This document shows, piece by piece, positions 1 through 18,632 of a stretch of 18,632 bases of DNA. The stretch's first letter is position 1; each line of letters starts with the position of its first letter. Source of the DNA: Pseudomonadota bacterium (GTDB taxonomy: Bacteria; Bdellovibrionota; FAC87; UBA2466); contig JAYUGC010000009.1 of assembly GCA_043767805.1 (NCBI GenBank), positions 1-18,632 of the forward strand, given 5' to 3'. Below the pieces are notes generated by a model. The model had not been told where the DNA came from, searched no databases, and saw only the letters and a list, made by a program, of their open reading frames with translations. The translations under genes and the position numbers were made by a program.

Positions 1-260
1 TCTACCGAAAACAGGAAGAGGAGCTCTGGTGGTATTTTCTGAAGGCCGATAACACGGGCGTTCCCGACGGCTGGATTCCTTATTACCGGGTGCTCGGTAA
101 GGTCACCAAAGTAGGCCAGGCGCCTCGCCCCACGCGGGAGACCCGCCGCGACGACGTCCGCCGTCTGTGGCGCTCGCGCCTGGGATACGCCGTCTATGCG
201 TCACGCCTGACCGGCCGGCTTCTGCAACGTTCCCTCCTGGGACGCGCAATGCATGGGTAA
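1..260 (+). CDS. 5'-truncated S24/S26 (signal-peptidase-like) family peptidase, C-terminal part
   Basis: Not in the ORF track because the start lies outside the window. The frame beginning at nt 3 is open to TAA 258-260: YRKQEEELWWYFLKADNTGVPDGWIPYYRVLGKVTKVG...RAMHG*. 'FLKADN..PDGWIP...VLGKV' resembles the S26 box E 'KGDN...D......ilGkV'. The stop overlaps the next ATG (253) by 8 nt, suggesting an operon. Confidence 0.6.
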   Translation, partial: YRKQEEELWWYFLKADNTGVPDGWIPYYRVLGKVTKVGQAPRPTRETRRDDVRRLWRSRLGYAVYASRLTGRLLQRSLLGRAMHG

Positions 261-978
261 GCCACTCGTTTCCATCGTCGTGCCGACGTTCAACCGCGTG
301 CGCTTTCTCCGGCAAACGATCTTGTCGCTTCTCGCCGAGAAAGACGTCTCGACGGAAATCTGGGTGGTCGACGATGCGAGCGAAGACGACTCCATGGATT
401 CCATCCGCGACCTTCCAGTCGGCCAAATCCGTTTAGAGAAGAATCGAGGCGTCAGCCGCGCGCGGAACGAAGGGCTCAGTGTCTGCCAAGGCGAGCTCGT
501 CACTTTTTTCGATAGCGACGACCTTTTGGTTCCCGGCGGCATAAGCCGACGAGCGAAAGCTCTCCTCGCGCTTCCCTCGGCGGTTGGGGTCGGGGGCACG
601 CAAGCGGGCGATATCGACGCGGATGGGAATCTGCTCCCTCACCGCGTGCAACTCCCACCCAAGGAACCACTCACCTTGGATTTTTTTCGGCGGGGTGGAG
701 TTTACTGCCTGGGGCCTTGGCTTTATCTCTTTCGCCGGAAGGCTCTAGAGGAAGCAGGCGGCTTCGACGAGACTTTGCAGCTCGCTTCCGACAGTGATCT
801 CATGTTTCGTTTACTCGGCTCGGGCTACGTGCCGGTCCTTCCCATTCCCGTCATGCTCTACCGTTTTCACGAAGGAAATTTGAGCTTTTCCGATGCCGAG
901 CGCCCGGCCATGAGGCCACGTGCTTTAGCCGAAACTTACTTAGTGAATGCCCAGTACGGCATTCCCTTGCGGAGCTAG
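253..978 (+). CDS. Glycosyltransferase family 2 (GT-A fold)
   Basis: VSIVVPTFNR, EIWVVDDASED, NRGVSRARNEG, FFDSDD (DxD), GGFDETL..SDSDL, YRFHEGN: canonical GT2 motifs. Confidence 0.93.
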   Translation: MGKPLVSIVVPTFNRVRFLRQTILSLLAEKDVSTEIWVVDDASEDDSMDSIRDLPVGQIRLEKNRGVSRARNEGLSVCQGELVTFFDSDDLLVPGGISRRAKALLALPSAVGVGGTQAGDIDADGNLLPHRVQLPPKEPLTLDFFRRGGVYCLGPWLYLFRRKALEEAGGFDETLQLASDSDLMFRLLGSGYVPVLPIPVMLYRFHEGNLSFSDAERPAMRPRALAETYLVNAQYGIPLRS

Positions 979-980
979 CC

Positions 981-1703
981 ATGAAGCTGTCCATCGTCAT
1001 TCCCATTCACAATCAGGGCGCGTTTCTCTTCGCGGCTTGCGAGAGTCTCCTCAGAGAGCGGGCGGACACGGAAGTGATCGTCGTGGACGACGGATCCACC
1101 GAGGAGCTTTGGGACCTACTCGGCGAGCTCAACGTAAAATATTTCCGCCTGGGACGGCGGCAAGGCGTCGCGGCGGCTCGCAACTACGGGGGCCGGCAAG
1201 CGAGCGGTGAGTATCTGGGCTTTCTGGATGCCGACGATAAATCGGCCGCGGGTGGGCTTACTTGGCGAGTGGATTATCTGGACGCGCATCCTGAGTTCCG
1301 CGCGGTAGCGGGCGCCTTGGGCCAAATCATTGGCGAGGACGGCCTTCCTCTCCCGTCCTTTACGTTTCCTTGGGCGGCAACGCCGCTCCCACCGCTCCTC
1401 ACACGGGAATGGGCGCGCGCCCGGGGACCGATGCAAACCGCGGCTTGGTCGCTGACGTTCCGCCGTGATTTTTTCCTGGAGCTGGGCGGATTCGACGAGT
1501 CGTTACGTTTCGATCCAGATACGGATCTCCTCACGCGGGCCCTGGAGCAGACATCCATTCCGTACTTCGCGAAAGCGGTCGTCGATTACCGCGTGCACGC
1601 GGGAAACCACTCGCGTCTGGGCGGCATTCCCGAGTTCCGGCAAAAGCCTCACGTCCTGGCCGAAACGTGGCTTTCCTATCTCGCCGCCCAAGCTAGACAG
1701 TAG
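981..1703 (+). CDS. Glycosyltransferase family 2 (paralog of the upstream GT2)
   Basis: LSIVIPIHN, EVIVVDDGS, GVAAARNYG, FLDADD, GGFDESL..DTDL, YRVHAGN. Starts 2 nt after the upstream stop, with GGAG upstream. Confidence 0.93.
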   Translation: MKLSIVIPIHNQGAFLFAACESLLRERADTEVIVVDDGSTEELWDLLGELNVKYFRLGRRQGVAAARNYGGRQASGEYLGFLDADDKSAAGGLTWRVDYLDAHPEFRAVAGALGQIIGEDGLPLPSFTFPWAATPLPPLLTREWARARGPMQTAAWSLTFRRDFFLELGGFDESLRFDPDTDLLTRALEQTSIPYFAKAVVDYRVHAGNHSRLGGIPEFRQKPHVLAETWLSYLAAQARQ

Positions 1704-3429
1704 CGCGGGGCATTTCCACCATGCGGCCTTGGCCGTAGTGGAACATGAGCTCCAAAGGCTCGCCGGCCTCGAGATCTTGGATATTTTTAGGCGAGCGGTG
1801 CACGGGGAAGCGAAACTTCGCGAGGTATACGTCGTGCTGCAGTTTCTCGACGCCGGGAGGAAGGGTCTTATCCTCGTCTATAGTGGCGTTTCTTTCTCCG
1901 CCCCGCCGGCCCCGGTTTTTCGCCGACAGAGCCAGAAAGCGCACGTACTCCTGGAGCGCCGGCGGCTCTTCTCCAAGCTCCTGGGTGACGAACTCTGAAA
2001 CCCACTGCGCCTCTTGGCAGAGCTCAGCGACCGAGCTCGAAGGCAGAAAAAAATCGGCAAGCGACTTACCATGGCGCGCGAGAAACGCATCCATGCGCCG
2101 TAGGCCTTCCATTAGGCGCAAGCCCAGTTTCTCGCTCACGGTCTTCACACCGAAACGGAAGTGATCCCGGTAGTAGCCTCGAAGCCGCTTCGCCCATTCG
2201 TCCCCGCGCGCGAAATCTTGCTCGGAAAACTGCGGCGTGCGGAACACCCGATAGGGCGCTTCGGGCTCAAACACGATGCCGAGCTTATCTGCGTTCGAGA
2301 AATAACTTGAGCCCGGGAGAAGCGTGAGCCGATGGACGTTAACCAGATTGGCGTCGAGCTCCAGCGCGAAATCGAGAGACGCTTCGAAATCTTCGTACCG
2401 ATCCCCGGGCAATCCGTAAATGACGTCGATATTGAGCTCGAGGCGGGAAGTCAGGGAACGAAGGCGCTGAAAATTGGAACGAAACTTGTCCGCTTCGAAC
2501 CGGCGCCCCGCGATCTTCAAAGTCTCCGCATTGGTGGTTTGCAGGCCAAACGCGATGTAACCCGACTTGAGCCGCGCGAGCCGCTCGATGAGCTCTTCGT
2601 TGAGAAGCTCCGCCACCATCTCGAAATCAAAAATGCAGCTCCCGCCCTCTTCCTCCAAAATGATGTCGAGGATCTCGACGAGGCGCTTGCGATGCATATT
2701 GGAAACGGCGTCGGCGATCCAAACCCGGCGCACCGGAGATTTCATGATCGCCCGGAGCTCGGCTTTTACGCGCTCGAGCGGGAAGTAGCGAACTTGCCCC
2801 AGCACGCCCCAGGTGCAAAACCCACAGCGAAAGGGGCAGCCCCGGTTCGTTTCGAACGCCGCCAGATGGCTTCCCACGGTTTCCAAGTTCAGAGCGCCCG
2901 AGAGAAAGGGAGACGGGACTTCGCTCAAATCCGCGATGAGCGGCCGCTCGAGATTGGTGACGACTTCGCTGTCTTCCCGAAAGGAAATGCCGCTGACGGG
3001 CGATAGCGCCGCCTTGTTCCACCCCTGCTTGATCACTGAGAGAAACAGATCTCGAAAGGTGTGCTCGCCTTCGCCTCGAACGACCAGATCGAGCGCCGAA
3101 TGCCCGAGATAATGGGAAGCGCGGTGACTGACTTCGGGGCCGCCGGCGAAACATTTCTTCGCGGGGTCCAAGGCCTTTAGCCCGTTAATTACTTCGAGCA
3201 TTTTTGCCACGTTCCACACGTAGCAGGAGAAGCCCACGAAATCGGCGTCCTTCGCTTTTTGAATGAGCGTTTCGGCGTTGACGTCGACGTTCTCGTCGAT
3301 AACTTCCAAATCCAGGCCGTCGCGCAGCTCGGGTTCGTCGAGCCATACGGCCTTCATTAGGTAAGGCGCCAGAGCGACTCCCGCGCTTACCGGATTCAAA
3401 GAGACTAAAAGCACTTTGGGTTTTTTCAT
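1693..3429 (-). CDS. Cobalamin (B12)-binding radical SAM protein (class B methyltransferase-like)
   Basis: N-terminal B12-binding motifs DFVGFSCYVWN, AGGPEVS, VVRGEGE. Radical SAM motif ETNRGCPFRCGFC (CxxxCxxC), then GLQT and DVIYGLPG. ATGA overlap with the upstream radical SAM gene at 3426-3429. Confidence 0.95.
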   Translation of the reverse strand: MKKPKVLLVSLNPVSAGVALAPYLMKAVWLDEPELRDGLDLEVIDENVDVNAETLIQKAKDADFVGFSCYVWNVAKMLEVINGLKALDPAKKCFAGGPEVSHRASHYLGHSALDLVVRGEGEHTFRDLFLSVIKQGWNKAALSPVSGISFREDSEVVTNLERPLIADLSEVPSPFLSGALNLETVGSHLAAFETNRGCPFRCGFCTWGVLGQVRYFPLERVKAELRAIMKSPVRRVWIADAVSNMHRKRLVEILDIILEEEGGSCIFDFEMVAELLNEELIERLARLKSGYIAFGLQTTNAETLKIAGRRFEADKFRSNFQRLRSLTSRLELNIDVIYGLPGDRYEDFEASLDFALELDANLVNVHRLTLLPGSSYFSNADKLGIVFEPEAPYRVFRTPQFSEQDFARGDEWAKRLRGYYRDHFRFGVKTVSEKLGLRLMEGLRRMDAFLARHGKSLADFFLPSSSVAELCQEAQWVSEFVTQELGEEPPALQEYVRFLALSAKNRGRRGGERNATIDEDKTLPPGVEKLQHDVYLAKFRFPVHRSPKNIQDLEAGEPLELMFHYGQGRMVEMPRATV

Positions 3430-4445
3430 GGGTGGGGATCACCCGGCGGCCGGTAGAGACGGCACTGCTCGCAAACGACCTTGCCACTAGCCGGCGCACC
3501 CAGCGTCGGGACGAAACGGCTCCGAGCAAAGCGGTAGCTTTCCCCGTTCCAGATGTCGTCGAAACTTTGGGTGAGAAGATCGCCCATGACGGCCTCCTTC
3601 TTATTGGCCCAGCAACAAGGGGTAATTTTCCCCTCGGGGTTGATCACGCAGCTGTCAAAAAGGGCGCCGCACCGGCCTGGGGCGGGTGCCGGGCCTTCGG
3701 AATCCTTGTAGTACTCGCGGATGTCGGCGGCCTCCGAGGGGAGCCACTGCCGCTTCCAGCTTTCTCCGTCGCCTTCGACGGGAAAATCCACCCACTCGTA
3801 TCCCAGAAAAAGCTGCTTGCGTTCGAAGTCCACGCCCAGCTCGTCGGCAATCGCCTTCACCTTCGGGGCATCGGCCTCGTTCTTTTTGCTCACGATGAAG
3901 CCCACCGTGATGCGCGGCAAGGCCGACTCTAACTTCTGCTTCGTGGCCACGAGACTTCTCAAATTGGAAAGCACGAGCGCGAGATTCCCGCCTTTGCGAT
4001 GCTGCTCGTAGGTCTCCTGAGTCGCGCCGTCGACGGCGATACGCAAGTGATCGAGGCCCGAGGTGACGATGGCCTCGAAAAAGGCAGCGTCGCGAGTCAG
4101 GCTGAAGTTCGAGTGAATGGTGACCCGGATGCCGCGCGCGGTGGCAAGACGGATCATCTCGAAAATGTCGGGGTGCTGAAAGGACTCTCCAATGTTGAAG
4201 AGATTCAACCTCCGTACCGACGTCATTTTTTCCAGCACGCTCTGGAAAGTGGCGAGCGGCATCTTGCGCTTGAAATCGTTGGGAAGCCCCTGGCCAGTGG
4301 GGCAGAGCTCGCAGCTCAAATTACAGGCGCTCATCGGATCGAGGTAGAGCTGGGAGGGAAGCGGAATCCGCCCCGAAATGGCGTACTCCATCCAGGTCTT
4401 TTTTCCCATGCCTTCGGGAGAACGGAGGGACGTTGGTGCTTCCAT
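3426..4445 (-). CDS. Radical SAM protein with C-terminal SPASM/Twitch Fe-S domain
   Basis: CNLSCELC (CxxxCxxC), NIGES, IAVDGATQETY..RKGG. C-terminal CGALFDSCVINPEGKITPCC...MGDL..SFDDIWNG...CEQC. Confidence 0.93.
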   Translation of the reverse strand: MEAPTSLRSPEGMGKKTWMEYAISGRIPLPSQLYLDPMSACNLSCELCPTGQGLPNDFKRKMPLATFQSVLEKMTSVRRLNLFNIGESFQHPDIFEMIRLATARGIRVTIHSNFSLTRDAAFFEAIVTSGLDHLRIAVDGATQETYEQHRKGGNLALVLSNLRSLVATKQKLESALPRITVGFIVSKKNEADAPKVKAIADELGVDFERKQLFLGYEWVDFPVEGDGESWKRQWLPSEAADIREYYKDSEGPAPAPGRCGALFDSCVINPEGKITPCCWANKKEAVMGDLLTQSFDDIWNGESYRFARSRFVPTLGAPASGKVVCEQCRLYRPPGDPHP

Positions 4446-4468
4446 GATTGAGGATCTCTCGGGCTACA

Positions 4469-4497
4469 ACTAAAGCGGGGGTGATTTTCGCTGTCAA
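4469..4497 (-). promoter_or_regulatory. Putative sigma70 promoter for the two radical SAM genes
   Basis: Minus strand: perfect TTGACA (4497-4492), 17 nt spacer, weak -10 TTTAGT (4474-4469), about 24 nt upstream of ATG 4445. Confidence 0.35.
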
Positions 4498-4558
4498 CCG
4501 CTCCGGGTCTTCTATTGCGCCGCCAAAAGAGAAAGGAACGCGAACCAAGCAGGAAAGC

Positions 4559-4567
4559 TGTTACATT
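4559..4567 (+). promoter_or_regulatory. Putative extended -10 element
   Basis: TGtTACATT (TGn + TAnnnT), 12 nt upstream of ATG 4580; no SD sequence visible. Confidence 0.3.
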
Positions 4568-4579
4568 AGCGGCGTCACG

Positions 4580-5830
4580 ATGAACGCCAGACTCTTTAAT
4601 CGTCTTCGCGCCGGAATCGACGGCCTTTGCCACTGGCCCCTCGTTCGCCTGGCCGGCACGGATTGCTACTGGTGGGCCGCGTCCGCGGTGGCCCGCAAGC
4701 TTTACCGTTTCCCGGGCGTGCGTTCCGTGGCGCTCCGAGGCGGAATGGTCAGAGGGTGCCGGCCGGGGATTTCCGATTTGGATTTCACCGTCCTCCTGCA
4801 CGACGAAAGCTTTGAGACCGAAGTGACTCAGTCACGCGCGCTCATCGCCGAGTACCGAAGCTTGAAGCGATTCGTGCCGATGCTCGGAGAGCTGACGCTG
4901 ACCACGACCGGACGCTGGTCGCACTTTGAACGGCTGGCTCCCGGCCCGGTCCTTGGCTACCGCGATCAGCTGCGGTTTCACAACGGACGATGGACGAAGG
5001 CCCGGTGCGAGGCCGTTCCCCACGCGGCGGCGCGTTTCGCCCTCGCTCTCGATCACTTTCGTCTGGCTCTCCACGCCGCCCAGCTCGACGATAGCCGCTA
5101 CGGCCGCATCGTCGCCGCGAAGGAAATGCGAAAAGCGGGGAAGTTTGCGGGAGACGAAACGGCGGGCGAGGATCCGATCCTGGTTTTTCTCGCGCTCGAT
5201 CGTTTGGCCACCGAAGCCGTTCAAGACCGGTTTTTTACTCCCGAGCTGACTTGGCCCGAAGCCCCCGTTTTAAGGCGAGCGGCCCACGCGGTTCTCGGAG
5301 ACTGGCAGATTGCCACTTTGCTAAAACGGCCCGGTTTTTCCGAAGGAGTGGCAGCGGGCGATGCCCCCTTCTCCCTCGCCGCCTCTCCCCACCACGTGCG
5401 AACGTGGATGCCCGCGCTGCTTCGCCGGGAAAAGGGCGAGTCGCGCCTTCCCGTATATCCGCTTTCTCCCGCCATGAGCGAGTGCCGCGCGAGAGGATGG
5501 GCGGGTTGGTGGCCCACCGAGCCGCTGGCCCAATTTCCTAACTCCGGCGCGCCCTCTCCTGAGCGAGGCGGGCATCTGCTTCGCAGCCTGGTTGAGAGAC
5601 TCTGTCACGACAGCATTTGCCTCGTGCCCGGGCGCCTGACCCTCGCCGCCGACCGCGAGAGCGATCTATGGGAGACGCGTTTTTCCGTCGAGACAAATGC
5701 GCTTAGGCAAGCGTTGCGCCTGGATCCGGTCGCCAAGCAATCCCAGGATCGCCTCAGTCACGGCATCACCTTGGCGCGCTCCGCCATGGAGGCTGTTGCC
5801 CTGGCCCGGGATCGATCTTGGCTCAACTAA
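4580..5830 (+). CDS. Nucleotidyltransferase (DNA pol-beta superfamily) domain protein with uncharacterised C-terminal region
   Basis: VRSVALRGGMVRGCRPGISDLDFTVLL fits the hG[GS]xxRG...SDhD nucleotidyltransferase signature. ATG 4580 is preferred over TTG 4448, which would leave no room for the divergent promoters. Confidence 0.7.
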   Translation: MNARLFNRLRAGIDGLCHWPLVRLAGTDCYWWAASAVARKLYRFPGVRSVALRGGMVRGCRPGISDLDFTVLLHDESFETEVTQSRALIAEYRSLKRFVPMLGELTLTTTGRWSHFERLAPGPVLGYRDQLRFHNGRWTKARCEAVPHAAARFALALDHFRLALHAAQLDDSRYGRIVAAKEMRKAGKFAGDETAGEDPILVFLALDRLATEAVQDRFFTPELTWPEAPVLRRAAHAVLGDWQIATLLKRPGFSEGVAAGDAPFSLAASPHHVRTWMPALLRREKGESRLPVYPLSPAMSECRARGWAGWWPTEPLAQFPNSGAPSPERGGHLLRSLVERLCHDSICLVPGRLTLAADRESDLWETRFSVETNALRQALRLDPVAKQSQDRLSHGITLARSAMEAVALARDRSWLN

Positions 5831-5927
5831 CAACGCTGAGCACCAGAAAGCGACTCGATTTTCTCTTGGCGGGGCTCAAACCCTTCGGTTATCCTTCCGG
5901 AAACTCTAACGAATTAACCACTCGCGG

Positions 5928-6326
5928 ATGAAACCCATGGACGAAGAGCGCTACCGAACCAGTGAGTCTGCCGTCTACCGCGAGGTAGGAAACGAGCTCG
6001 TCGTCATTCAAGTCGAGACAGGACACTTCTACTACTTCAACAAGACGACCAAACAGTTTCTCGATTTCTTCCGCCATCCGGCGAAGCTCGACGATTTTCT
6101 TTCGCGCGCGGGACTAAGCGACGACGCCGAGCTCACCTACCTCAAAACGTTTTTGTGCACCCTGAAAGACAAGCGCATCTTGGAAGCGACCGAAGCGACG
6201 GGGGTCATTCCCTCGGGAGGCGAAGTGAGCTCATACGACCGGCCCACGCTCATCCGCGAAGGCGAGAAGAAGCTCGACGAGATCGCGTCCGAAATTGCCG
6301 TGCTTACCACGGGCACTTTCCTCTAA
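5928..6326 (+). CDS. PqqD-family RiPP recognition element (RRE) with a C-terminal leader/core-like extension
   Basis: Residues ~8-87 (YREVGNELVVIQVETGHFYYFNKTTKQFLDFF...LKTFLCTLKDKRILE) fit the PqqD pattern of 3 beta strands plus 3 helices. They are followed by a G/S/T linker and YDRPTLIREG...VLTTGTFL. The start could alternatively be ATG 5937. Confidence 0.85.
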   Translation: MKPMDEERYRTSESAVYREVGNELVVIQVETGHFYYFNKTTKQFLDFFRHPAKLDDFLSRAGLSDDAELTYLKTFLCTLKDKRILEATEATGVIPSGGEVSSYDRPTLIREGEKKLDEIASEIAVLTTGTFL

Positions 6327-6442
6327 AAAGCCCCGCCCCCGGCCTAAACACCTCTTTCGTGTAGTAACCCCACGGGTTACGCCATTCGCTTCCGCGCTGT
6401 TCACTTCTCAGACGAATTTCACAATTCGGCAGGCTTCCCGAT

Positions 6443-6459
6443 CTGGAACGGACCCTGCA
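6443..6459 (+). promoter_or_regulatory. Putative sigma54 (-24/-12) promoter
   Basis: CTGGAACGGACCCTGCA: GG-N10-GC spacing, close to the consensus YTGGCACG-N4-TTGCW, 53 nt upstream of ATG 6513. Confidence 0.5.
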
Positions 6460-6512
6460 GTAGCAGAGCTTAAGCAAAGCACACTGGACACGCGACTTTG
6501 AGAGAACAACGA

Positions 6513-7658
6513 ATGGCCTTACGACGCACAATTTGCGCACTCGCCTTAGGAATCGCTTTCACGATTCCCGTGCTTTCGGCGCGAGCCGATGAGGATCGCC
6601 GCACCCAGCAAGGAGACAAGGCCAGCAAGGAATTGAAGAAGAAGACCGAAGAGCAGCTGCTGCCTTCGCAGAAGATACATGAAGGACTTAAAGAAGAGCA
6701 TCTAAAGAAGGCCGAAGAGGCGCGCCAGAATAAAGACGAAGGAACGGCTCAAAGAGAAGAACAGATGGCCATGATGGAGCAGATGAAGGTTCAACAGCTC
6801 CAGCAGCAAATCCAATCGAACAACGAGTCGGCTGACAAGAACGCGCAAGGCGCCGCAAAGCTCACCGAGACGGACGCGAACGACAAACAAAAATCTTATG
6901 ATCCGAGCGTCGTTTCCGTGCGAAAAGGCGAAGTGCCTTCAGCTCCCGGACAAAAGCCTTCCGGCGGCGGTAGCCCTCCGGGGACCGAGCCCGCGGCTCC
7001 TCCCGCGCAGCTTGCGGACCTCAGCACTTTTTCTCGTGAGGCCTTGCCCCAGCCGGCAGTCGTCGCTCCGAAGGCCGAAGCGCCGCCCCCTGCCGCGAGA
7101 CCGCAGACCATCGATCATCTTTTGGGAGACTTGGAAAAGGTAGACCGCGCGGCCGTCGTCTATGAGGACGGCGCGAAGAACGCGAATGGCGGCCAAAGCG
7201 GGGCGACGCCGCAATACCGTTTGCTCACTTCCGCTTCGGGTCAGGCGACGACCCCGACCGCGACGGTTTCTGGCGGTAGCTCAGACGGCGGAGCCGGAGG
7301 GGCGAATTCCGATATTTGGAAAGCGGAAGCGGAGAAACCCACCGGTGGCCGAGCGGTCGCAACCAGAGGCCCGGCTTCCGTCGGCGGCTCGACGTCCGCG
7401 CTGGAAGGCGAAAAGGCTTTGGGCGCGTTGGACAAGGATTTCTTCGAGCCCTGCCCGGACGCGAAGGAATGGAAAAAGATGTCGAAGGAAGCGCGCGGAG
7501 GCGTGCGCGACTCTTGCCAAAAATTAGCAAAGCAGTGCCAGGCCAAGCCCGCCGACAAAAAAGCTCCGAAGGGCACGAAACCCAAAGAGCTCGCCGCCGA
7601 GTGCAAAGAATGGCTCGGCCAAAAATCCAAGACCGAAAAGAAAACCGCGGCGAAGTAA
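6513..7658 (+). CDS. Secreted hypothetical protein: coiled-coil, Pro/Gly/Ser/Thr-rich disordered region, RGPAS motif, 4-Cys basic C-terminal domain
   Basis: Sec signal peptide MALRRTICALALGIAFTIPVLSARA ending in A-x-A; K/E/Q-rich helix. ATG 6513 with GAGAGA upstream is preferred to TTG 6498. Confidence 0.8.
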   Translation: MALRRTICALALGIAFTIPVLSARADEDRRTQQGDKASKELKKKTEEQLLPSQKIHEGLKEEHLKKAEEARQNKDEGTAQREEQMAMMEQMKVQQLQQQIQSNNESADKNAQGAAKLTETDANDKQKSYDPSVVSVRKGEVPSAPGQKPSGGGSPPGTEPAAPPAQLADLSTFSREALPQPAVVAPKAEAPPPAARPQTIDHLLGDLEKVDRAAVVYEDGAKNANGGQSGATPQYRLLTSASGQATTPTATVSGGSSDGGAGGANSDIWKAEAEKPTGGRAVATRGPASVGGSTSALEGEKALGALDKDFFEPCPDAKEWKKMSKEARGGVRDSCQKLAKQCQAKPADKKAPKGTKPKELAAECKEWLGQKSKTEKKTAAK

Positions 7659-7731
7659 CGCCCGCGGCGCGTCCCGCGCGCTCGATCCGGGGCGGTCACT
7701 GGTTGCCCGCCGCAACTAAAGGGATCGTGAA

Positions 7732-9069
7732 TTAGCGAATGTGGAGTTCCGCGTCGAGCTCTTGGATGCGATCCATGATCTGATCGTCGGACAAGCCTTC
7801 CGTGCCGTTCTCAAAGCGCGCGAGCTCCGCCGTCGTGGGAACGCGGTTCATGACGAGACTCGGCTGAAACGATCCGGTCGACTGAGGCGTGTGGCCGGCC
7901 ATGTCGTTCGTCTTCCAGATGGAGTAATCGCGGATTTCGCCGAGCGCGACGAAGCCGTCCTTCATGCCGTCCACGTAGCCGTCGGAATGCCCGATAAGAG
8001 CCTTCCACAAAGCGTGACCGAAAGCGCTGCCCGCGCTGCCGTTCGGGCCATTCGGCTCCTCGGGATCCGTGCCGGGGCCGGTCGACGATTCTTCGGAGGG
8101 CTTGCTCGAAGCCAAGACCATGAGAGTGCGGCCCTGGGCTTGCCAGTCCTGCCAATCGGCCTTCTTCTTATCGAAGGAGCTGACCAAATTGCCCGAGTAG
8201 CAAGCCATCATGAAGACGACCACTTCGCTCGCGGGCATGGAAAGCGCGTTGTCCCGCACTTCGTCGTAGCTCACGCCGAACTGAAGACCGGTGTGAGAGC
8301 CGTGACCGCTCGAGTACTGCACGTACATGTCGTCGCGGGTGATGACCTTCTTCAAGTCTTGCCACTTTTGACGGAGCGCCGAAGCGTTGGAGCCGATGAT
8401 CTTGGTTCCGAGGTAGTTTCCGCCGAGGTCTTTGGTGAAGATGTCGTGCGTGTGATTGATGTCGTACTTCACTTCGTTGCCCATCATGCCGGAGAGGGCA
8501 TCGCCGAAGCCGATGTAGTATTTTTTGCCGACGTAGCCCACGCCCGTAATTGAGCGCGAGTCAGGTCCCACCGGCTGCACGCGGAGCGCGAGCAAGAACT
8601 CTTTCGCCGTGGCGCTCGCCGCGGGAGCGGAGTCCGATTTCGCCCAGCCGTAGTACCGATTTCCCCGGTACTCCATGGTGAAGGCTTTTACGTACACTGC
8701 GGAAGCCGAGCCCGCCGCCTGGTAGCGGTACTCGAGAATGTCCCACTTGAACATGCCATGCGGCTCCCCCTTCATGTCGGAGGTGACGACAGCCTTCGCA
8801 TCGAGCTGCGATTTCAAATCGAAACTGCCCGCGGGTTTCACGCGAAAGTTCAAGGTGTCCGATCCCTTGGTCAGCGCGACGAGCAAAGTCTGATCGCTTC
8901 TCGCGTCTTGCGCAAAGGCCCAGCCAGTGGGAAGCGCGAGACTCAAAGCCTCCATGCCGTAAAGACCCGAACGCGTGGGGCCGCTTTTGCGGCGCCCTTC
9001 CGAAGCGGCGACGGCAGGCAAAGCCAGAAGACACAAGCCCAGACCGATCCAACCGAAGTGACGATTCAT
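7732..9069 (-). CDS. Secreted caspase-fold (clan CD, C13/C14-like) cysteine peptidase with an additional N-terminal domain
   Basis: Signal peptide (LALPAVAA). Catalytic His motif YVQYSSGHG and Cys motif VVVFMMACYSG, then VLASS.P.EES, GSAFGHAL, DGFVALGE..Y and TPQ as in bacterial caspase-like domains. SD AAGGA. Confidence 0.8.
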   Translation of the reverse strand: MNRHFGWIGLGLCLLALPAVAASEGRRKSGPTRSGLYGMEALSLALPTGWAFAQDARSDQTLLVALTKGSDTLNFRVKPAGSFDLKSQLDAKAVVTSDMKGEPHGMFKWDILEYRYQAAGSASAVYVKAFTMEYRGNRYYGWAKSDSAPAASATAKEFLLALRVQPVGPDSRSITGVGYVGKKYYIGFGDALSGMMGNEVKYDINHTHDIFTKDLGGNYLGTKIIGSNASALRQKWQDLKKVITRDDMYVQYSSGHGSHTGLQFGVSYDEVRDNALSMPASEVVVFMMACYSGNLVSSFDKKKADWQDWQAQGRTLMVLASSKPSEESSTGPGTDPEEPNGPNGSAGSAFGHALWKALIGHSDGYVDGMKDGFVALGEIRDYSIWKTNDMAGHTPQSTGSFQPSLVMNRVPTTAELARFENGTEGLSDDQIMDRIQELDAELHIR

Positions 9070-9256: not shown

Positions 9257-10951
9257 ATGCCCCAAATTTTAACCACCTGGATCCGGCGGACTTGGCCCTT
9301 CGCCTTTGTCTGTGCGTGCGCGGCGTCGCCGCCGCGCGGTCTCGATACTCCCCCTACTCAAGCGGGAGTTCTGCCGGGCCTAGTCGAAGCGTTGAAGCTT
9401 CAGCCGCCCGATGCGGGGCTCCCCGATCCGGTGTCCGCCGAAGACACTCCCCTCTTTCGCCAAGCCGCGCAGGTCGACCGCTTGTTAAAAGGCCTCGCGA
9501 GCCCCGAAGAAACGAAAGCGCTGACGCAAGAGTGCCGCAAGAAGCGGGTAAAAAATCCGTTCTGCCCCATCGTTCGTGACGCCAAACGTCTAAAGTCTTT
9601 TTTCGAAGAGACCGAGCGGCCGTACAAGTTCAGAGAGCCTACGCCGAAAGAGCCTATGGCTCCCCAGATCGTCGACGGCAACGTCGTCAATTACGCGAAG
9701 TTAAAAAAAGCCGACGTCGACAATCTTCTGCCCGGCTTCAAGACGCTTACTCCCGAAGCTCTGACCATCGTCAAAGCGAAAGCGCTTTCCTCGGCGGGCT
9801 GTCCGGACAACGCGGCTATCGCGCTCGCGGCCACTCTGGAAGACGGCATGCCGAGCAAGGTGGATCCCAAGGAAGTCGCCGCGCTCTACGCGAAAGTCGG
9901 TGGCTGCTTTCCGAAACGCTCGGCGAACCGCGAGCACTTTCTCACGCGCGCGGGCCTTCTCTATTATTATTCCGCCGACTACGCGTCGGCGGCCACCGTG
10001 CTCGCCCGCGCCGAAGCTCAAGATGCTCTCGTGGGCCGCCCGCTCTATTGGCTCTACCGTTCTCGCAAAGCGCTCGGCGAGACGGAGAAGGCCGACCAGA
10101 CTTTGAAAAAACTCTTTCGGCAGCATCCGCTCTCGTTCCACGCGCTTATGGCCGCGCTGGAGAGCGGACAAGCGCCCGAAACGGTTTTTCTTCATCCACC
10201 GACTCCCGTGAAAAAGCGATCGAAGCGCGTCCCTTGGGCCAATGCCTGGTTCGAAGACATCGAGACCATGAAGCGGTTCGGCTTCTTCGCCTCCTCCGAG
10301 CGGCTCACGGTGTGGGTCTCGGCGAAAGCCAAACGCCTCGAGCCGGAAGTGCGTCTCTATCTCGCCGAGTTCGGAAGCCCGTTTTTCAAAGTCACCCGGC
10401 TCACGGAAATTTTCATCCGCCGTCGTCCGCTCATGTCGACCGAGTCGTTCAAGCTCGCCTACCCGCTCGCCTACTGGCCGCTCATGGAGAGAAACGGCAT
10501 GGATCTCGATCCGCTGCTGCTGCTCGCCGTGGGCAGAAAAGAGAGCAAGTTCGATCCTAAGGCGGTCTCTCCCGCGAACGCGCAAGGGCTTCTCCAGATT
10601 CACCCCGACACGGGTAAGCGCCTGACGGACGGCGCCGCTCTCGATCTCACGAACCCTTACGTGAATATCACGGTCGGCGCGCACTACATCACCGAGCTTT
10701 TAAAAAGACTCGATGGCCGTTTGCCTTGGGCCCTCGCCGCGTACAACGCGGGCGAAGAGGCTGCTCACTCCTGGATGGTGCGCTTTCCGTCGCCGGATCC
10801 GATTCTCCAAATCGATCTCATCACGTTCCGCGAGACTCGCAACTACGTGGGCTTCGTGCTCTCGAACTACTACTGGTACCGGCGGCTCTACCAGCCGGAG
10901 AAGGGCCAGCCCCTCGATTTTCTGGTTCCGCCGGAAGTCGCGCGTAAATAA
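9257..10951 (+). CDS. Soluble lytic transglycosylase (Slt70-like, helical/TPR N-terminus), possibly a lipoprotein
   Basis: SLT motifs RKESKFDPKAVSPANAQGLLQI (catalytic Glu), ALAAYNAG and ETRNYV. TPR-like helices upstream; a possible lipobox in FVCAC. Confidence 0.92.
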   Translation: MPQILTTWIRRTWPFAFVCACAASPPRGLDTPPTQAGVLPGLVEALKLQPPDAGLPDPVSAEDTPLFRQAAQVDRLLKGLASPEETKALTQECRKKRVKNPFCPIVRDAKRLKSFFEETERPYKFREPTPKEPMAPQIVDGNVVNYAKLKKADVDNLLPGFKTLTPEALTIVKAKALSSAGCPDNAAIALAATLEDGMPSKVDPKEVAALYAKVGGCFPKRSANREHFLTRAGLLYYYSADYASAATVLARAEAQDALVGRPLYWLYRSRKALGETEKADQTLKKLFRQHPLSFHALMAALESGQAPETVFLHPPTPVKKRSKRVPWANAWFEDIETMKRFGFFASSERLTVWVSAKAKRLEPEVRLYLAEFGSPFFKVTRLTEIFIRRRPLMSTESFKLAYPLAYWPLMERNGMDLDPLLLLAVGRKESKFDPKAVSPANAQGLLQIHPDTGKRLTDGAALDLTNPYVNITVGAHYITELLKRLDGRLPWALAAYNAGEEAAHSWMVRFPSPDPILQIDLITFRETRNYVGFVLSNYYWYRRLYQPEKGQPLDFLVPPEVARK

Positions 10952-13166: not shown

Positions 13167-14723
13167 ATGCCACGGCGCTTTGCTCAATGGGCTCTTCTCG
13201 GTTTGGCGGTCGGAGCGTGTTTTCTCGCCTGGTCTCTCTCCGTCGATTATTTCGACTCCTACGACATTCTTTCCAATGCCCGCCGTCTGGTGGGCAACGG
13301 CTACGGCGAGTACGTGCGCGGCCGCGGCCTTTTGAGCGGCCCGCTCTTCGCGGGCTTCGCGATCGTCGAACGTTGGTTTCCGAGCTTTCCGTTTTTTCGC
13401 GCGGCTCATCTGTGGTCGCTCACTCTGACTCTCACTCTGGTGCTCGCCTTTCTTACGATCGCGCGCCGGATAAGCCCGCGTCACGCGTGGGCGGGAGCGC
13501 TCGCTCTCGCCTTGAACCCGCTCGTCGTTCACTACGGCGTCTTTGCCAAAGAAGACATTCCCGCGACGCTTTTCACGGTGCTTGGCTTTGCGGAAATCCT
13601 GCGCCGAGGCGTCGGCTCGGCGCCCCTGTGGTTCGCGCTCGCGGGGCTCATACGAGCCAATCTTTTTCCCGCCATCGGCGTCACCGTCTTTCTTTTTCGC
13701 TGGGGACAGAAAGAGAGAAAAGGCGCCGTTCGTCTCTACGGCGGCTGGGTTCTTGCCACTCTCAGCATCGCCACGATCGTATACGCGTGGGCGGGACTCG
13801 GATCGGTCACCACGTTCGTAAGCGATCTGCTGACTCAATGGAAAGACAACCAGCAAGCGTATCAACCGCCCTCGGTCGCGCTCGGGCTCATCGGGGTCGC
13901 CCTGCCCGTCGTGGTGATCGCCGCTGGAGCGGTCGGCGCGCTGAGAGGCGCCGACGCGCCGACAAAGCTCGCGACTCTTTGGGCCGCGGTTTTCATTGGC
14001 CTGCAAACCTTTATCGTGTCCGGCAAGGAGACTCGCTATTTTCTTCCCGCGCTGCCGGCGCTCTACTTGCTGGCGGTCGCGGGTTTCGAGCGCTTGCCCA
14101 AGGTAATCGCCCTCGCCTGGTGGCTGGTGCTACCCGCCGGCCTTTTGGAAATGGCGCGCTTTCAAGATCCGATCTTTCGCGAGCCGAAAGCGGAACGGGT
14201 CTCGAAAGCGGCGGCGTCTCTTTCCCGCACGGGACGGGTCGTTTGGGTGGGCCCGTTTTATCCGCTTCGCCCCGCGCAACACGTGCTCCACGAAGACGAT
14301 GATTATTTTTCTCTCTTTCACCTTTGGAGAAACGGCGTCGCGTTTCATCTCAAGCACGAAGTGCCCGCCATCGCGTTTCCACAGAGCGAGCTTTTCAACG
14401 GCGAGACCATGCCGCGCGGGTTGGGTCAGTATCTCGAAACGGGAGACGCCATTCTTTGGAATCGCGAGCCGCGCTCCTACGCCACGCGCGACTTGCCCCC
14501 CACGCTCGCGCCACTCGTCATCGCCAGAGTCGAGATCTTCGAACGTAAGGACCGCCTACCTTCTCCCGGTCCTTACGAGGCCTACTCCGCCACCGCCGAA
14601 GGCTTTCGCTCCTTGGGCTGGCACAACGAAAGCGAACCCCCAGGCTCGCCATGGTGGCTCCAGCTACAGGGTGTAAGTGAACAGCCACTCAACAAAACCG
14701 AGTACAATCCGTATACACTCTAA
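13167..14723 (+). CDS. GT-C superfamily (ArnT/PMT_2-like) membrane glycosyltransferase with C-terminal soluble domain
   Basis: TM1 followed by the acidic loop YFDSYD; then LALNP, KEDIP and KETRYFLPALP; about 10 TM segments. ATG 13167 is chosen because TTG 12909 overlaps the divergent gene. Confidence 0.75.
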   Translation: MPRRFAQWALLGLAVGACFLAWSLSVDYFDSYDILSNARRLVGNGYGEYVRGRGLLSGPLFAGFAIVERWFPSFPFFRAAHLWSLTLTLTLVLAFLTIARRISPRHAWAGALALALNPLVVHYGVFAKEDIPATLFTVLGFAEILRRGVGSAPLWFALAGLIRANLFPAIGVTVFLFRWGQKERKGAVRLYGGWVLATLSIATIVYAWAGLGSVTTFVSDLLTQWKDNQQAYQPPSVALGLIGVALPVVVIAAGAVGALRGADAPTKLATLWAAVFIGLQTFIVSGKETRYFLPALPALYLLAVAGFERLPKVIALAWWLVLPAGLLEMARFQDPIFREPKAERVSKAAASLSRTGRVVWVGPFYPLRPAQHVLHEDDDYFSLFHLWRNGVAFHLKHEVPAIAFPQSELFNGETMPRGLGQYLETGDAILWNREPRSYATRDLPPTLAPLVIARVEIFERKDRLPSPGPYEAYSATAEGFRSLGWHNESEPPGSPWWLQLQGVSEQPLNKTEYNPYTL

Positions 14724-14813
14724 CCCGTCGTAACTAGGCCAATTCCCGGATCGCATTTTTTTGACTCCCTAGACTCTATACGATCTGGCCTTGGGCGCCG
14801 TGGCTGAATTCCA

Positions 14814-14830
14814 TTGGTATACGCCTTGCA
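14814..14830 (+). promoter_or_regulatory. sigma54 (-24/-12) promoter
   Basis: TTGGTATACGCCTTGCA matches TGGYAY-N5-TTGCA with GG-N10-GC spacing. It lies in a 230-bp intergenic region upstream of the lipoprotein. Confidence 0.7.
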
Positions 14831-14882
14831 TTAAGGACAGGGCAGACACCGCATAATCATCCGCACCTTAGTTACCGCACCA

Positions 14883-14906
14883 GATACCGAACTCAAAATC
14901 GGTATC
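14883..14906 (+). repeat. Perfect 8-bp inverted repeat in the predicted 5'-UTR
   Basis: GATACCGA-actcaaaa-TCGGTATC. Confidence 0.6.
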
Positions 14907-14953
14907 CCTGACCTCAGCCAACATTTTTGAAAAGCTTCTCTGGAGAGACAAAC

Positions 14954-16309
14954 ATGAGCACGAACTCCTTGATGGCGAAATGGCTGAAAAACGCGAGTCT
15001 AGCGGGACTGGTTTTTCTGGTCGTCGGTTGCGGAGGCACTCTCTCCAAAACGGTCACCGCCGGCGGGAACGGCAACTTGACCCCGACGCCGACTCCCGGA
15101 GCGGTCGCGGATCCCATGCTTCCCAAGTCCATCATCGGTAACGTAACGGCCTTCAGGCCGACCACCCGGGCGGCGGCGGCCTCTCTCGATACCCTGAGAG
15201 ATCCCGCGACGGCCTTCGGCGCCAACGCGCTGATGGGATATCCCGGACTAGGCGATGTGCTTTCTTCCGGCCTTTACATGAACCCCAGCCAGCAAGGACT
15301 CGCTCTCGACACTCAGTTCATGCTCGGCTCTTACACGATTCAAGACGGCGTGCTCATGCCGGCGCCTTACTCTCCCTTTCTCGCGCACTTGGGCCGGTCC
15401 AACGAGCATGTGTACCTCGGCGGAGAGCTCGACGTGAGCATCCCCGGCTCTTACGCTGAATTTTTCCTCCGCCACCACGATCCGAATCGCACGCGCCATT
15501 GCCTGGCGGCTTGCCGTCTCTCCAACGAGAACGGACAAATCATCGGCCGGCTACAGACCGACAACGACGGAACGACCACCACGCTCGGCACCGTGTACCT
15601 GACCTCGCCCCGCGCGGCGGTCGAGTGCGTTGCCTACAAGGACACTTTGGCCATGTACATCAACGGCCGCTTGGCCGCGGCCGCGAAGGATCCGGAGCCG
15701 GTCAATCGCCAAGCGCTCTTCGGCATCTCGGCGAACAACGGCCGCTTCCGGTCCATCTCGGCGGCGAACCTCGAGACGCTCCGGAACTCGAACCAAATCA
15801 CTTTCTACGACAACGATTTCACGTACCCCTCGGGCTCGGTCCTCCCGATTCAGTTCGAAGTCACCGGCGGCGGAGCCCTCATCGGTAACGGCGAAGTCGT
15901 CCCCTACGGCGGCGCCACCCCGACGGCCCTCATCCGCAACGTCGACGTCGCCGACGTCGACCTTTCGATAGACTATAAGCTTAGCTACAACAGCCCTCGC
16001 GCGGCGCTCATCGCCCGCTCGAACAGCACGGGCCACTACCGGGCGGAAGTGAACTTCGGGGCGACCGGCTACACTGTCTCGATTTTCCGCAGCAACCAGA
16101 CCGCGGCCATCTCGGGCCCCTACACGATTCCGGCGAAGTCGGCTGGCACCTTACGCTTCACCCTACACCGCGAAGAGCTCCGCGCTTACGTCGACAATCA
16201 GCTCTACGCAGCGGCGACTGACTCCACCGCGGGCTTCGGCAAAGGCCGGGTCGGCATGCTCATCAAAGACGTCACCGTCGACAACTTCCTTTGGAAGTCG
16301 TTCTACTAA
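14954..16309 (+). CDS. Lipoprotein with two tandem concanavalin-A/DUF1080-like beta-sandwich domains
   Basis: SD GGAGAG, lipobox VVGC and a TPTPTP linker. Internal repeat: LAMYINGRLAAAAKD...FGIS vs LRAYVDNQLYAAATD...GRVGM...VDNF. Confidence 0.75.
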   Translation: MSTNSLMAKWLKNASLAGLVFLVVGCGGTLSKTVTAGGNGNLTPTPTPGAVADPMLPKSIIGNVTAFRPTTRAAAASLDTLRDPATAFGANALMGYPGLGDVLSSGLYMNPSQQGLALDTQFMLGSYTIQDGVLMPAPYSPFLAHLGRSNEHVYLGGELDVSIPGSYAEFFLRHHDPNRTRHCLAACRLSNENGQIIGRLQTDNDGTTTTLGTVYLTSPRAAVECVAYKDTLAMYINGRLAAAAKDPEPVNRQALFGISANNGRFRSISAANLETLRNSNQITFYDNDFTYPSGSVLPIQFEVTGGGALIGNGEVVPYGGATPTALIRNVDVADVDLSIDYKLSYNSPRAALIARSNSTGHYRAEVNFGATGYTVSIFRSNQTAAISGPYTIPAKSAGTLRFTLHREELRAYVDNQLYAAATDSTAGFGKGRVGMLIKDVTVDNFLWKSFY

Positions 16310-16544: not shown

Positions 16545-16664
16545 AACACGCAGAGCGAGCGCGTCCTGCGAAAGTGCGGCTTCGTTTACGAAGACAGTAT
16601 GAAAAACTACTATCTAAAAGACGGAAACCTTCTTGGCGCGCGGATGTTCGCACGCTTTCCCTAG
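16545..16664 (+). pseudogene. C-terminal remnant of a RimJ/RimL-type GNAT acetyltransferase
   Basis: NTQSERVLRKCGFVYEDSMKNYYLKDGNLLGARMFAR fits the GNAT motif N.aS.RVLeK.GF..EG.lr....kdG...D...ya. The upstream in-frame sequence is not GNAT-like and is too short for a whole domain. Confidence 0.65.
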
Positions 16665-18015: not shown

Positions 18016-18632
18016 TCACTCCTTGAAGTGAAACTTGATGACGACCTTTTGCGCTTTCGTGCAGTCGTACTTGGCACAATATTGCTCGCCGGACATTTCC
18101 TTGCCGTCTTTCGTGCCTTCCGCCCGCAGATAGCCCTGCCCCGTGACCTTCGCCATGGGGAGGAGCTCGTTCTGGTACTTGTACTTGAAGCGCTTCGGGT
18201 TGAAGGCGAAATCGAAAATGGATTTAGCGCGCTGGTAGCTCAGATCCATGTTGTAGTCGACCGCTTTGCGCGCTTCGGGACGCAGATCCTTCGGATTCAC
18301 GTAGGCGCCCTTATAGGTCGGAGAGGCGAAGCCCACTATCTCCACGGAAGCGATCCGTTGGGCGAGCTTCTCGTCTTCCAAGATGCTTTTCGCATAAGCC
18401 GGCATCGCGTTTTGCAAAACGTGGCGCATGCCGTCTTTCAGGCCCGATTTTCCGGTATCGAAGTACTCTTCGCCGAACTGGATCTGCACTTCGCCGGTCT
18501 TCACGTTGATGTCCGCCTTGATGCCGGAGCGGGCGAAGTTCTCTTTGATCTTCTTGGCGAGCGCGGTGCGATCCATTTCCCTCTGGCGAAGCGCCGCGAG
18601 CTCGCGTTGCATGTCCTGGTTCGTATCGGAGA
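18016..18632 (-). CDS. 5'-truncated OmpA/MotB-like peptidoglycan-binding domain protein with preceding coiled-coil
   Basis: YFDTGKSGLK, VEIVGFAS, YNMDLSYQRAKSI, VTGQGY and QKVVIKF fit the OmpA_C-like pattern. The frame remains open to the window end. Confidence 0.8.
   Translation of the reverse strand, partial: SDTNQDMQRELAALRQREMDRTALAKKIKENFARSGIKADINVKTGEVQIQFGEEYFDTGKSGLKDGMRHVLQNAMPAYAKSILEDEKLAQRIASVEIVGFASPTYKGAYVNPKDLRPEARKAVDYNMDLSYQRAKSIFDFAFNPKRFKYKYQNELLPMAKVTGQGYLRAEGTKDGKEMSGEQYCAKYDCTKAQKVVIKFHFKE

Follow-up and report, generated by a model that had tools for sequence, protein, structure and literature searches.

An RRE domain joined to a leader-like motif and a short variable tail: a candidate one-chain RiPP precursor family in relatives of Bdellovibrio

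Architecture of the RRE protein P0001

The stretch of 18,632 nucleotides (nt) analyzed here (hereafter, the window) is the complete contig C9 (JAYUGC010000009.1) of a 4.5-Mb genome (assembly GCA_043767805.1), deposited as a Pseudomonadota bacterium and placed by GTDB in the phylum Bdellovibrionota. At positions 5928..6326 of the forward strand, it contains an open reading frame (ORF) that translates into a protein of 132 amino acids (aa), P0001, in which a RiPP recognition element (RRE), a linker, a leader-like motif, and a core-like tail follow one another in a single chain (RiPPs are peptides that are made on the ribosome and modified after translation). An alternative gene call on the same strand, P0002, begins at the ATG at 5937 and yields 129 aa.

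The RRE, a PqqD-like winged-helix domain, spans approximately residues 8–88 (5949..6191, forward strand, as for all parts of this ORF), as supported by the match between the family profile and TbiB1, the secondary structure of an AlphaFold2 (AF2) model, and Foldseek. It is followed by a variable linker (residues 89–102; 6192..6233), in which no column is conserved among 76 aligned sequences and the mean predicted local distance difference test score (pLDDT) is 76 for residues 91–100. Next comes a leader-like recognition element, YDRPTLIREGEKKLDEIA (residues 103–120; 6234..6287), recognized by column conservation, by the AF2 model, and by gap-free likeness to both the lasso peptide motif YxxPxLx3G and the leader in precursors of linear polyphosphorylated peptides (LPPs), YxxPxVLxHQxIxFETxxS (Popov et al., Nat Commun 2026, PMC13381572). 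The chain ends with the core-like tail SEIAVLTTGTFL (residues 121–132; 6288..6323), set off at the point where the tail types of the family diverge, past position 120, and modeled with pLDDT below 50 for residues 127–132. The initial annotation of this DNA, made without database searches, had singled out the linker ATEATGVIPSGGEVSS and the tail YDRPTLIREGEKKLDEIASEIAVLTTGTFL, placed Y103 at nt 6234, and matched the segment to YxxPxLxxxG; both sequences and the position of Y103 are found in the translation, where the motif reads Y103-D-R-P-T-L-I-R-E-G112. It was also right that Glu holds the position equivalent to the lasso Thr(-2): Glu118 lies six residues past G112, and across the family this column contains E in 35, D in 18, Q in 13, and T in 3 of the 76 sequences. 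A promoter and terminator scan of 4300–6600 gave nothing better than shuffled sequences.

The N-terminal domain is an RRE, because the family profile matches TbiB1, the AF2 model has the corresponding fold, and the top Foldseek matches are RREs. The first reading, a PqqD/RRE domain, stands for the RRE part, and the curated PqqD models (PF05402 and the NCBIfam PqqD families) do not match P0001 in searches of Pfam (E ≤ 10) and NCBIfam (E ≤ 1), in which the sole direct matches were WW/porin noise at E > 0.04. The profile of 8 close homologs matched TbiB1 with E 0.009, and the 76-sequence profile with E 7.6e-6 (profile positions 5–86 against chain residues 3–87 of 91); TbiB1 aside, nothing among the PDB sequences fell below E 0.02 with the latter profile. 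The AF2 model, built on the 76-sequence alignment, has a mean pLDDT of 83.5 and a predicted template modeling score of 0.70, with pLDDT > 90 over residues 11–90, and its strands (15–20, 23–28, and 33–38) and helices (40–47, 54–61, and 66–81) follow the canonical RRE plan. The best Foldseek matches in the PDB are TbiB1, TigE, the PbtF RRE, the TfuB1-type lasso B1 protein 6jx3, MccB, and NisB, headed by TbiB1 (5v1v_A; E 1e-3, template modeling score by target 0.70). By sequence, the domain is nearer to the B1 proteins of lasso systems than to PqqD; the Atlas clusters nearest to the homolog P0011 are labeled “PqqD family protein” and comprise proteins of 134–153 aa.

Residues 101–110 are placed confidently in the AF2 model (mean pLDDT 89) and a strand is predicted at 108–112; the mean pLDDT falls to 61 for residues 111–120. 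When residues 1–92 and 96–132 were modeled as two chains, the ipSAE score was 0.53, with 0.01 as the highest value among 3 controls, a result rated as weak support. Of 157 solved complexes, 116 attained the mark used, as did 2 of 215 mismatches; the passes at 0.60 or less comprise only 18 of the 157 solved complexes, together with both passing mismatches. Contact agreement among the two-chain runs was at least 87%, and the pLDDT of the partner was at least 57. Since RRE-leader complexes (for example, TbiB1-TbiA) have been solved and the two chains are halves of one gene, resemblance to known complexes may account for this pass. Docking of Y103–R110 in cis on the RRE is therefore best described as a weakly supported prediction; in this form the fold-back that was proposed initially is retained, and the segment might pair with strand beta3.

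A conserved block and discrete tail types in the homolog family

A word-indexed search retrieved 7 relatives of P0001 (51–100% identity), and phmmer, run exhaustively against 1.84 billion representatives, retrieved 80 clusters at E ≤ 1e-3, including 37 at E ≤ 1e-10 (clusters defined at 50% identity). Nearly all family members are 100–135 aa long, and most fall between 110 and 135 aa. The alignment used throughout, A2 (n = 76), consists of P0001, 74 matches, and a paralog from the same genome; of the 86 proteins retrieved, 11 do not enter it, namely, a duplicate of the window protein, the 497-aa fusion P0076, and nine further proteins that are short or match in the first half only (P0028, P0063, P0077, P0084, and P0086) or in which the match ends short of the tail (P0060, P0071, P0074, and P0080). 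The same C-terminal pattern is visible in most of the proteins left out. A search for longer fused forms of the family found none, which is weak evidence. The DNA pattern ..LDEIxFLCP-stop was present in 4 short metagenome contigs, with a family member on L082 (1152 nt) only; a further alignment, A1, searched against genome contigs, returned the contig of the same genus and one weak unrelated match, and nothing in metagenome contigs.

The common plan of the family consists of the RRE, a variable linker (columns 86–102 of A2 are unconserved), the block Y-x-R-P-x-[FL]-L-R-x-G-E-K-x-L-D-E-I, and a tail of 3–19 aa. Within the block, position 103 is Y in 52 of the 76 sequences, position 105 is R/K in 57, position 106 is P in 72, position 108 is F/L/Y in 75, position 109 is L/I in 71, position 110 is R/K in 69, position 112 is G in 42, position 116 is L in 61, and position 117 is D/E in 59. 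Both the motif and the architecture are kept among these homologs down to approximately 25–30% identity, and because of this conservation across the family the motif at Y103 goes beyond what chance would produce.

Past position 120, the family splits into discrete tail types that are rich in Cys, Ser, Thr, and Tyr. The most frequent type, x-[F/L]-[L/A]-[C/S/Y/T]-P, accounts for 32 of the 76 sequences, with xFLCP as the commonest tail; the type to which the window belongs, SEIAVLT(T/S).., accounts for 11; xFLY or xFFY and ..ISGPNTSxxG.. account for 5 each; and the remaining 23 include Cys-rich tails similar to SFVMACPTACTTAC. One of C, S, T, or Y lies within the final six residues in 71 of the 76 sequences. 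RiPP precursors usually look like this, with a conserved recognition block ahead of an end that is short, varied, and rich in nucleophiles. Conservation of YxxP combined with variation of the tail had been set in advance as the outcome to look for in a homolog alignment, and it is what the columns of A2 and the tail types display.

Conserved neighbors, the search for a separate precursor, and related copies

Of 401 sampled genomes of the phylum, 21 match the family profile. Twelve genomes, the window genome among them, carry full-length members, and all 12 belong either to the taxonomic family of the window or to a sister family within that order; in the other matches, the RRE part alone is covered. 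Neighborhoods of up to 20 kb were collected around 13 loci, and the neighboring proteins were clustered for 12 of them (L035 was left out because ORF selection there had lost the family gene).

A separate precursor was sought both around the window gene and across these loci. Between 4400 and 6560 of the window, 34 small ORFs were compared with the locus from the same genus; 8 are conserved, all of them lying over the RRE gene of that locus or over its copy of c3, the gene upstream of P0001 that is described below, and one of the 8 extends 27 nt beyond the RRE gene. The three intergenic stretches are not conserved between the two loci. Across the 13 loci, 20 of the 2348 ORFs of 25–220 aa contain [YW]xxPx[LVIFM]2, and the family proteins alone recur. 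The absence of a separate precursor ORF, reported by the initial annotation for the adjacent intergenic regions, is thus seen on both scales, and on the points that it had named as decisive, the domain is an RRE, the YxxP motif is found in homologs, and no separate precursor was detected at these loci.

The most constant neighbor is c3 (P0087; 4580..5830, forward strand), a protein of 416 aa without annotation that was assigned to the nucleotidyltransferase (NTase) fold by motif and predicted structure. It falls in a blast cluster at 8 of the 12 loci, directly adjacent to the family gene in 6; profile search detected distant copies 1–2 kb away in two more loci (10 of 12 in the same locus) and, for the last two genomes, a copy located on a different contig, so that all 12 genomes carry c3. 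Scans of c3 with Pfam and NCBIfam and a search of the PDB sequences with its profile gave no match. The signature R-G-G..P-x-S-D-[LI]-D..G-E is conserved, and one of 23 relatives matches PF01909 (1.8e-8). In the AF2 model (mean pLDDT 76.7), residues 23–147 superimpose on the aminoglycoside nucleotidyltransferase ANT(4')-IIb with VIA Z 8.8 and a root-mean-square deviation of 3.0 over 108 residues, and the N-terminal domain resembles other minimal NTases (2rff, Z 8.5; MNT antitoxin, Z 7.9); the Foldseek rows of the model are weak (E ≥ 0.017), and almost all of them are NTases. We read c3 as a putative NTase-fold enzyme, a reading for which fold and motif have to be taken together because the Z values are near the background for models that lack a clear match. 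At one locus (L028; G163:C18), two ORFs, 7823–8293 (156 aa) and 8341–8976 (211 aa), together represent the c3 homolog and immediately precede the family gene; a frameshift or an error in assembly may account for the split.

The GT2 glycosyltransferases of cluster c0 occur at 10 of the 12 loci and are represented in the window by two genes on the forward strand, 253..978 (241 aa; PF00535, 1.4e-26) and 981..1703 (240 aa; PF00535, 6e-24). Cluster c2, an SpI-like domain present at 8 of the 12 loci, occurs either free (136–164 aa) or fused to an S-adenosylmethionine (SAM)-dependent methyltransferase. All 8 members tested match TIGR02228 (E 2.5e-8 to 7e-15), one of them above the curated cut-off, and the Ser, His, and Asp residues are invariant, with spacings of 38 (Ser-His) and 25 (His-Asp). 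The best NCBIfam model of the methyltransferases associated with c2 is the daptide methyltransferase (E down to 2.4e-25, below the cut-off). An ATP-binding cassette (ABC) ATPase together with an ABC-2-like permease is found at 5–6 loci, GT4 and PMT_2-type transferases recur, and weak HprK-like matches appear in 3 of the 12 loci (TIGR04352, E 1.4e-7 to 1.2e-3).

Two radical SAM genes on the reverse strand set the window apart. The first (3426..4445, 339 aa; PF04055 and PF13186) encodes a radical SAM/SPASM protein, divergent from c3 in orientation, in which CxxxCxxC is located at residues 41–48, and the protein therefore has no N-terminal RRE of its own. The second (1693..3429, 578 aa; PF02310 and PF04055) encodes a B12-binding radical SAM protein of the KedN5-like C-methyltransferase type (NF033712, 4.7e-50, below the cut-off). 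Both are singletons in the clustering, and neither is present within 10 kb at the locus of the same genus, whose tail is of the type seen in the window, or at the 10 further loci. The GC content is even across positions 1–8000 of the window (0.55–0.65) and gives no sign that the pair is a recent foreign insertion. The presumption of the initial annotation that the neighboring enzymes act on the tail does not extend to the family in the case of this pair: the conserved partners are the NTase-fold protein, the GT2s, the SpI-like peptidase with or without methyltransferase, and the ABC transporter. Only 134 bp (4446–4579) lie between the SPASM gene and c3. If their operons are regulated together, this interval would serve as the control region of both; a simple scan found no sigma-70-like promoter.

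Two further loci of the same genome bear on the architecture. The paralog on contig C53 (L003:8387-8749, reverse strand; 120 aa, 41% identical) has the tail AFLCP and lies in a cluster with GT2, GT4, and methyltransferase genes, an SpI-methyltransferase fusion (3794–5146), and a c3 homolog of 699 aa (13866–15965). On contig C71 (L080:5030-8029), a different RRE (PF05402, 3e-10) is followed by a linker and a YEPPQF tail in cis (..VDYEPPQFQKFEDL..); its gene immediately precedes those of a PF14907 nucleotidyltransferase (1.2e-43) and an HprK-like protein, with flanking GT2s. Since the C71 RRE also carries a linker and a YxxP tail, the cis arrangement is found in two RRE lineages, one of which (C71) has the classical paeninodin/LPP enzyme set.

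A third operon of this genome, on contig C134 (L081:4972-8705), resembles SynChlorMet/HPr-rel-A cassettes. Its products are a P-loop protein of the HprK/PEPCK-like kind, a discrete PqqD-like RRE of 90 aa, a radical SAM/SPASM protein, a protein weakly similar to SpI, and a PF14907 nucleotidyltransferase (1.5e-30).

Comparison with known systems and competing explanations

The family loci share several features with those of the LPPs. In the report on these peptides, LPP biosynthetic gene clusters (BGCs) are described as sitting in glycosyltransferase-rich capsule loci, with both LPP and paeninodin BGCs embedded in capsular polysaccharide loci, and as encoding an SpI-like archaeal-type peptidase, LppS (S29/H68/D93), LppB as a stand-alone RRE, an HprK-like kinase, a nucleoside triphosphate transferase that is uncharacterised, and a transporter; LppS cleaves after T-1 only when the leader is presented by LppB, Ser3 of the core is polyphosphorylated, and LPPs are called restricted to Bacillota (PMC13381572). 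At the level of the family, the likeness covers a YxxP leader combined with a lasso-type RRE, the SpI-like peptidase, the NTase-fold protein, HprK-like matches in part of the loci, the transporter, and the richness in glycosyltransferases, and it extends to the catalytic spacing of the peptidase (Ser-His 39 and His-Asp 25 in LppS versus 38 and 25 in the c2 domain). In a common register, the LPP residues Y (0) and P (+3) meet Y and P in the family and P0001, V and L (+5 and +6) meet F/L and L/I in the family, F (+13) meets L, E (+14) meets D, and the phospho-acceptor Ser (+18) meets Ser121 of P0001, in a column where 9 of the 12 sequences having a residue carry Ser. The H, Q, I, and T of the LPP motif are unmatched in P0001 in this gap-free register. 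If the register applies, the core would start at I119.

There are differences as well. LPP systems have a discrete LppB and a separate LppA, whereas here the RRE is fused N-terminally to leader and core; the core is 3–19 aa in the family versus 45 aa in the studied LPP; c3 has no PF14907 match, unlike the NTase of known systems, although the Pfam family of the LPP enzyme is not stated in the part of the report available. Furthermore, many of the family peptidases are fused to a methyltransferase, the transporter is of the ABC-2 type versus MsbA-like in LPP clusters, the phylum is that of Bdellovibrio relatives versus Bacillota, and the window has two radical SAM genes and lacks the LPP-type peptidase and kinase.

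Other systems show partial likeness as well. The lasso pair TbiB1-TbiA (PDB 5v1v/5v1u) provides the best match of the domain in both profile and fold, and the YxxPxLx3G spacing recurs in the C-terminal part of P0001, but the leader is in cis and Glu replaces Thr at the -2-equivalent position; no lasso cyclase (Asn-synthetase-like) or B2 protease (transglutaminase-like) was detected among the 16 ORFs of the window (Pfam and NCBIfam) or the scanned neighbor proteins. In pseudomycoidin biosynthesis, the NTase-fold protein PsmN, encoded beside an RRE, is needed to add hexose onto the phosphorylated terminal Ser of a lasso precursor, so that paeninodin and pseudomycoidin share with the family an NTase-fold protein beside an RRE and a YxxP-leader peptide (PMC6993621). 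These are, however, lasso peptides with a separate precursor, a cyclase, and B1/B2 proteins (kinase PsmK, NTase PsmN), and the PsmN-type family has no detectable match to c3. The daptide RRE is described as binding the leader and delivering the C-terminus of the precursor to tailoring enzymes (bioRxiv 10.1101/2023.03.08.531785). The daptide leader motif is different, the RRE there is fused to enzymes rather than to the precursor, and no daptide decarboxylase or aminotransferase was seen at the family loci. In borosins, the core is fused to a catalytic methyltransferase and not to a bare RRE, and the engineered fusions of leader and enzyme are man-made; these share with P0001 the union of a recognition or enzyme part and substrate in one chain, with no bimolecular leader-binding step. 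The accessible parts of the RRE-Finder papers list RRE fusions to enzymes only. A literature search for natural RRE-precursor fusions found nothing relevant, with subscription journals thinly covered and supplements outside its reach, so that an earlier mention is possible.

Taking these comparisons together, we consider that P0001 is probably a natural RRE-leader-core fusion, that is, a RiPP precursor contained in one chain. Such a chain would combine an RRE of the lasso-B1/LppB type, a flexible linker, a YxxP-type leader of the kind bound by such RREs, and a short C-terminal core. Y103–R110 would occupy the peptide cleft of the RRE in cis, creating a permanent RRE-leader handle on which partner enzymes dock, and the disordered tail (from approximately I119/S121 to L132) would reach their active sites. 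The NTase-fold protein c3 and the GT2s could then decorate Ser/Thr of the tail (Cys/Tyr in other members) with phospho-nucleotidyl and/or sugar groups, and the two additional radical SAM enzymes of the window, one of the B12-dependent methylase type, might further modify a tail rich in Val, Ile, Leu, and Thr. By analogy, the family appears to share the logic of the LPP, pseudomycoidin, and daptide systems, with one structural difference, namely, that the RRE and the leader-core are a single chain. Whether the members form a natural class of self-presenting RiPP precursors in Bdellovibrio relatives, and possibly in other phyla, with tailoring enzymes and an SpI-like peptidase acting on a tethered core of 3–19 residues, is in our view evenly balanced. 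A bolder form of the proposal holds that the chain is a reusable scaffold, with a sugar-nucleotide-derived small molecule built on the C-terminal Cys/Ser/Tyr-Pro and then released.

Several observations weigh against the one-chain precursor. What the analysis establishes is the architecture, the RRE fold, the conservation pattern, and the gene associations; binding in cis, a substrate role of the tail, its chemistry, and its cleavage are proposed on that footing, and the evidence for docking is a prediction that was rated weak. The conservation counts in A2 are slightly favorable because 11 of the 86 proteins were left out, and the xFLCP end is strongly kept among sequences that are approximately 30–40% identical, which also fits a docking or catalytic motif. 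The failure of c3 to match PF14907 counts on the same side, as does the content of the family loci, which are rich in GT2, GT4, GT-C, and ABC-2 genes, like ordinary polysaccharide clusters. Because the window locus has neither an SpI-like peptidase (TIGR02228 matches in this genome lie on contigs C53, C134, C23, and C120 only) nor an HprK-like kinase (weak matches are found on other contigs of the genome), the release of the core is in doubt there. In P0076 (497 aa), the sole fused form seen, the RRE and YSRPILL are joined to a GT9 heptosyltransferase-like domain (PF01075, 7.2e-15) with no short tail; because GT9 replaces the tail, this protein fits a structural or adaptor role of the YxRP strand as well as a leader. 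Finally, in a distant family of the same phylum (genome G235; L068, G235:C5, 8144–12389), a tail-less PqqD protein of 96 aa (PF05402, 1.7e-14; best NCBIfam match, lasso PqqD chaperone) adjoins a GT4-GT2 fusion of 734 aa and a c3-like protein of 586 aa, with no YxxP peptide ORF found nearby, and since this locus pairs both, the enzyme set can work with a tail-less RRE.

These last two proteins favor a capped or autoinhibited chaperone, in which the YxRP strand would be a pseudo-leader that occupies the RRE cleft until a real substrate, encoded elsewhere, displaces the tail; P0076 retains the RRE and the strand with a GT9 domain instead of a core, the tail-less PqqD of G235 keeps company with comparable enzymes, and a highly conserved xFLCP end is compatible with such a cap. 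However, no YxxP precursor in trans recurs in the 13 loci or near the G235 protein, an inhibitor would have no need of many discrete nucleophile-rich tail types, and the family is accompanied by a conserved SpI-like peptidase with intact Ser, His, and Asp. We regard this explanation as rather unlikely.

The same can be said of a surface-glycan adaptor or primer, a scaffold that would recruit glycosyltransferases or carry a glycan on its C-terminal Cys/Ser/Tyr/Thr in a capsule- or O-antigen-like pathway. The genes that dominate the loci, encoding GT2, GT4, PMT_2-type GT-C, methyltransferases, and the ABC-2 transporter pair, agree with this role, and the C53 paralog lies inside such a cluster; LPP and paeninodin BGCs, too, are described as lying in capsular polysaccharide loci (PMC13381572). 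Against it stand the kinship of the domain, which is closest to leader-binding RREs, the agreement of the motif with recognition sequences of RREs, and the conservation of an enzyme resembling a leader peptidase. No polysaccharide pathway is known to use an RRE, although no search aimed at this point was made.

For the window only, the protein might be the precursor of a cofactor similar to mycofactocin or PQQ, with the SPASM protein remodeling the C-terminus with the help of the RRE, the GT2s glycosylating it, and the B12-dependent radical SAM protein methylating it. MftF is the best NCBIfam match of both GT2s (1.5e-25 and 2e-25), and the SPASM protein matches MftC (2.6e-14) and PqqE (1.5e-8) and lacks its own RRE; likewise, MftC depends on MftB, and PqqE on PqqD. 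Yet these matches are far below the cut-offs (90 bits for the GT2s versus 280 for MftF, and 53 bits for the SPASM protein versus 265 for MftC), the tail of P0001 ends in TFL whereas MftA ends in Gly-Val-Tyr, the radical SAM pair is missing from the locus of the same genus and from all other loci, and no MftD- or MftE-like genes are found in the window (Pfam and NCBIfam), all of which makes a cofactor precursor very improbable. That the segment is an ordinary C-terminal extension with a coincidental motif is barely credible: a single Y..P.L...G is estimated to arise by chance in a few per thousand proteins, but motif and architecture persist through the 76 homologs, and the independent RRE lineage on C71 has the same arrangement in the same genome.

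RRE pathways are understood as consisting of three bodies, the RRE, a separate leader peptide, and the enzyme, and mining tools seek a short precursor gene beside the RRE. If true, natural fusion in cis would account for “orphan” RRE loci in which no precursor gene is present, would provide a search handle (RRE proteins of 110–150 aa with a YxxP block near the C-terminus), and would extend tailoring logic of the LPP/paeninodin type beyond Bacillota; it would also offer a compact engineering scaffold in which the leader is always bound. For RiPP specialists, the interest is that such a fusion changes where precursors are sought, and it would link peptide tailoring to glycan-rich loci in relatives of predatory bacteria.

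The genes downstream of P0001 in the window include, immediately beyond it (6498–7658, forward strand), a gene for a protein of 386 aa with an apparent signal peptide, long low-complexity stretches rich in Lys, Glu, Ala, and Pro, and no family match, which is kept at the locus of the same genus and was not found at the other loci. The reverse-strand gene at 7732–9069 (445 aa), also with an apparent signal peptide, has a weak EACC1-associated caspase-type match (1.2e-6) and is syntenic in the genome of the same genus. A lytic transglycosylase of 564 aa is encoded at 9257–10951 on the forward strand (SLT, 5.6e-22; the best NCBIfam model is a flagellar-assembly lytic transglycosylase, 2.3e-34, below the cut-off). 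Toward the end of the contig, the reverse-strand genes at 16661–18004 and 18016–18612 match ZorA (6.4e-7) and ZorB2 (2.6e-7) of the anti-phage system Zorya weakly and far below the cut-off, and could equally be a stator pair similar to MotA/MotB.

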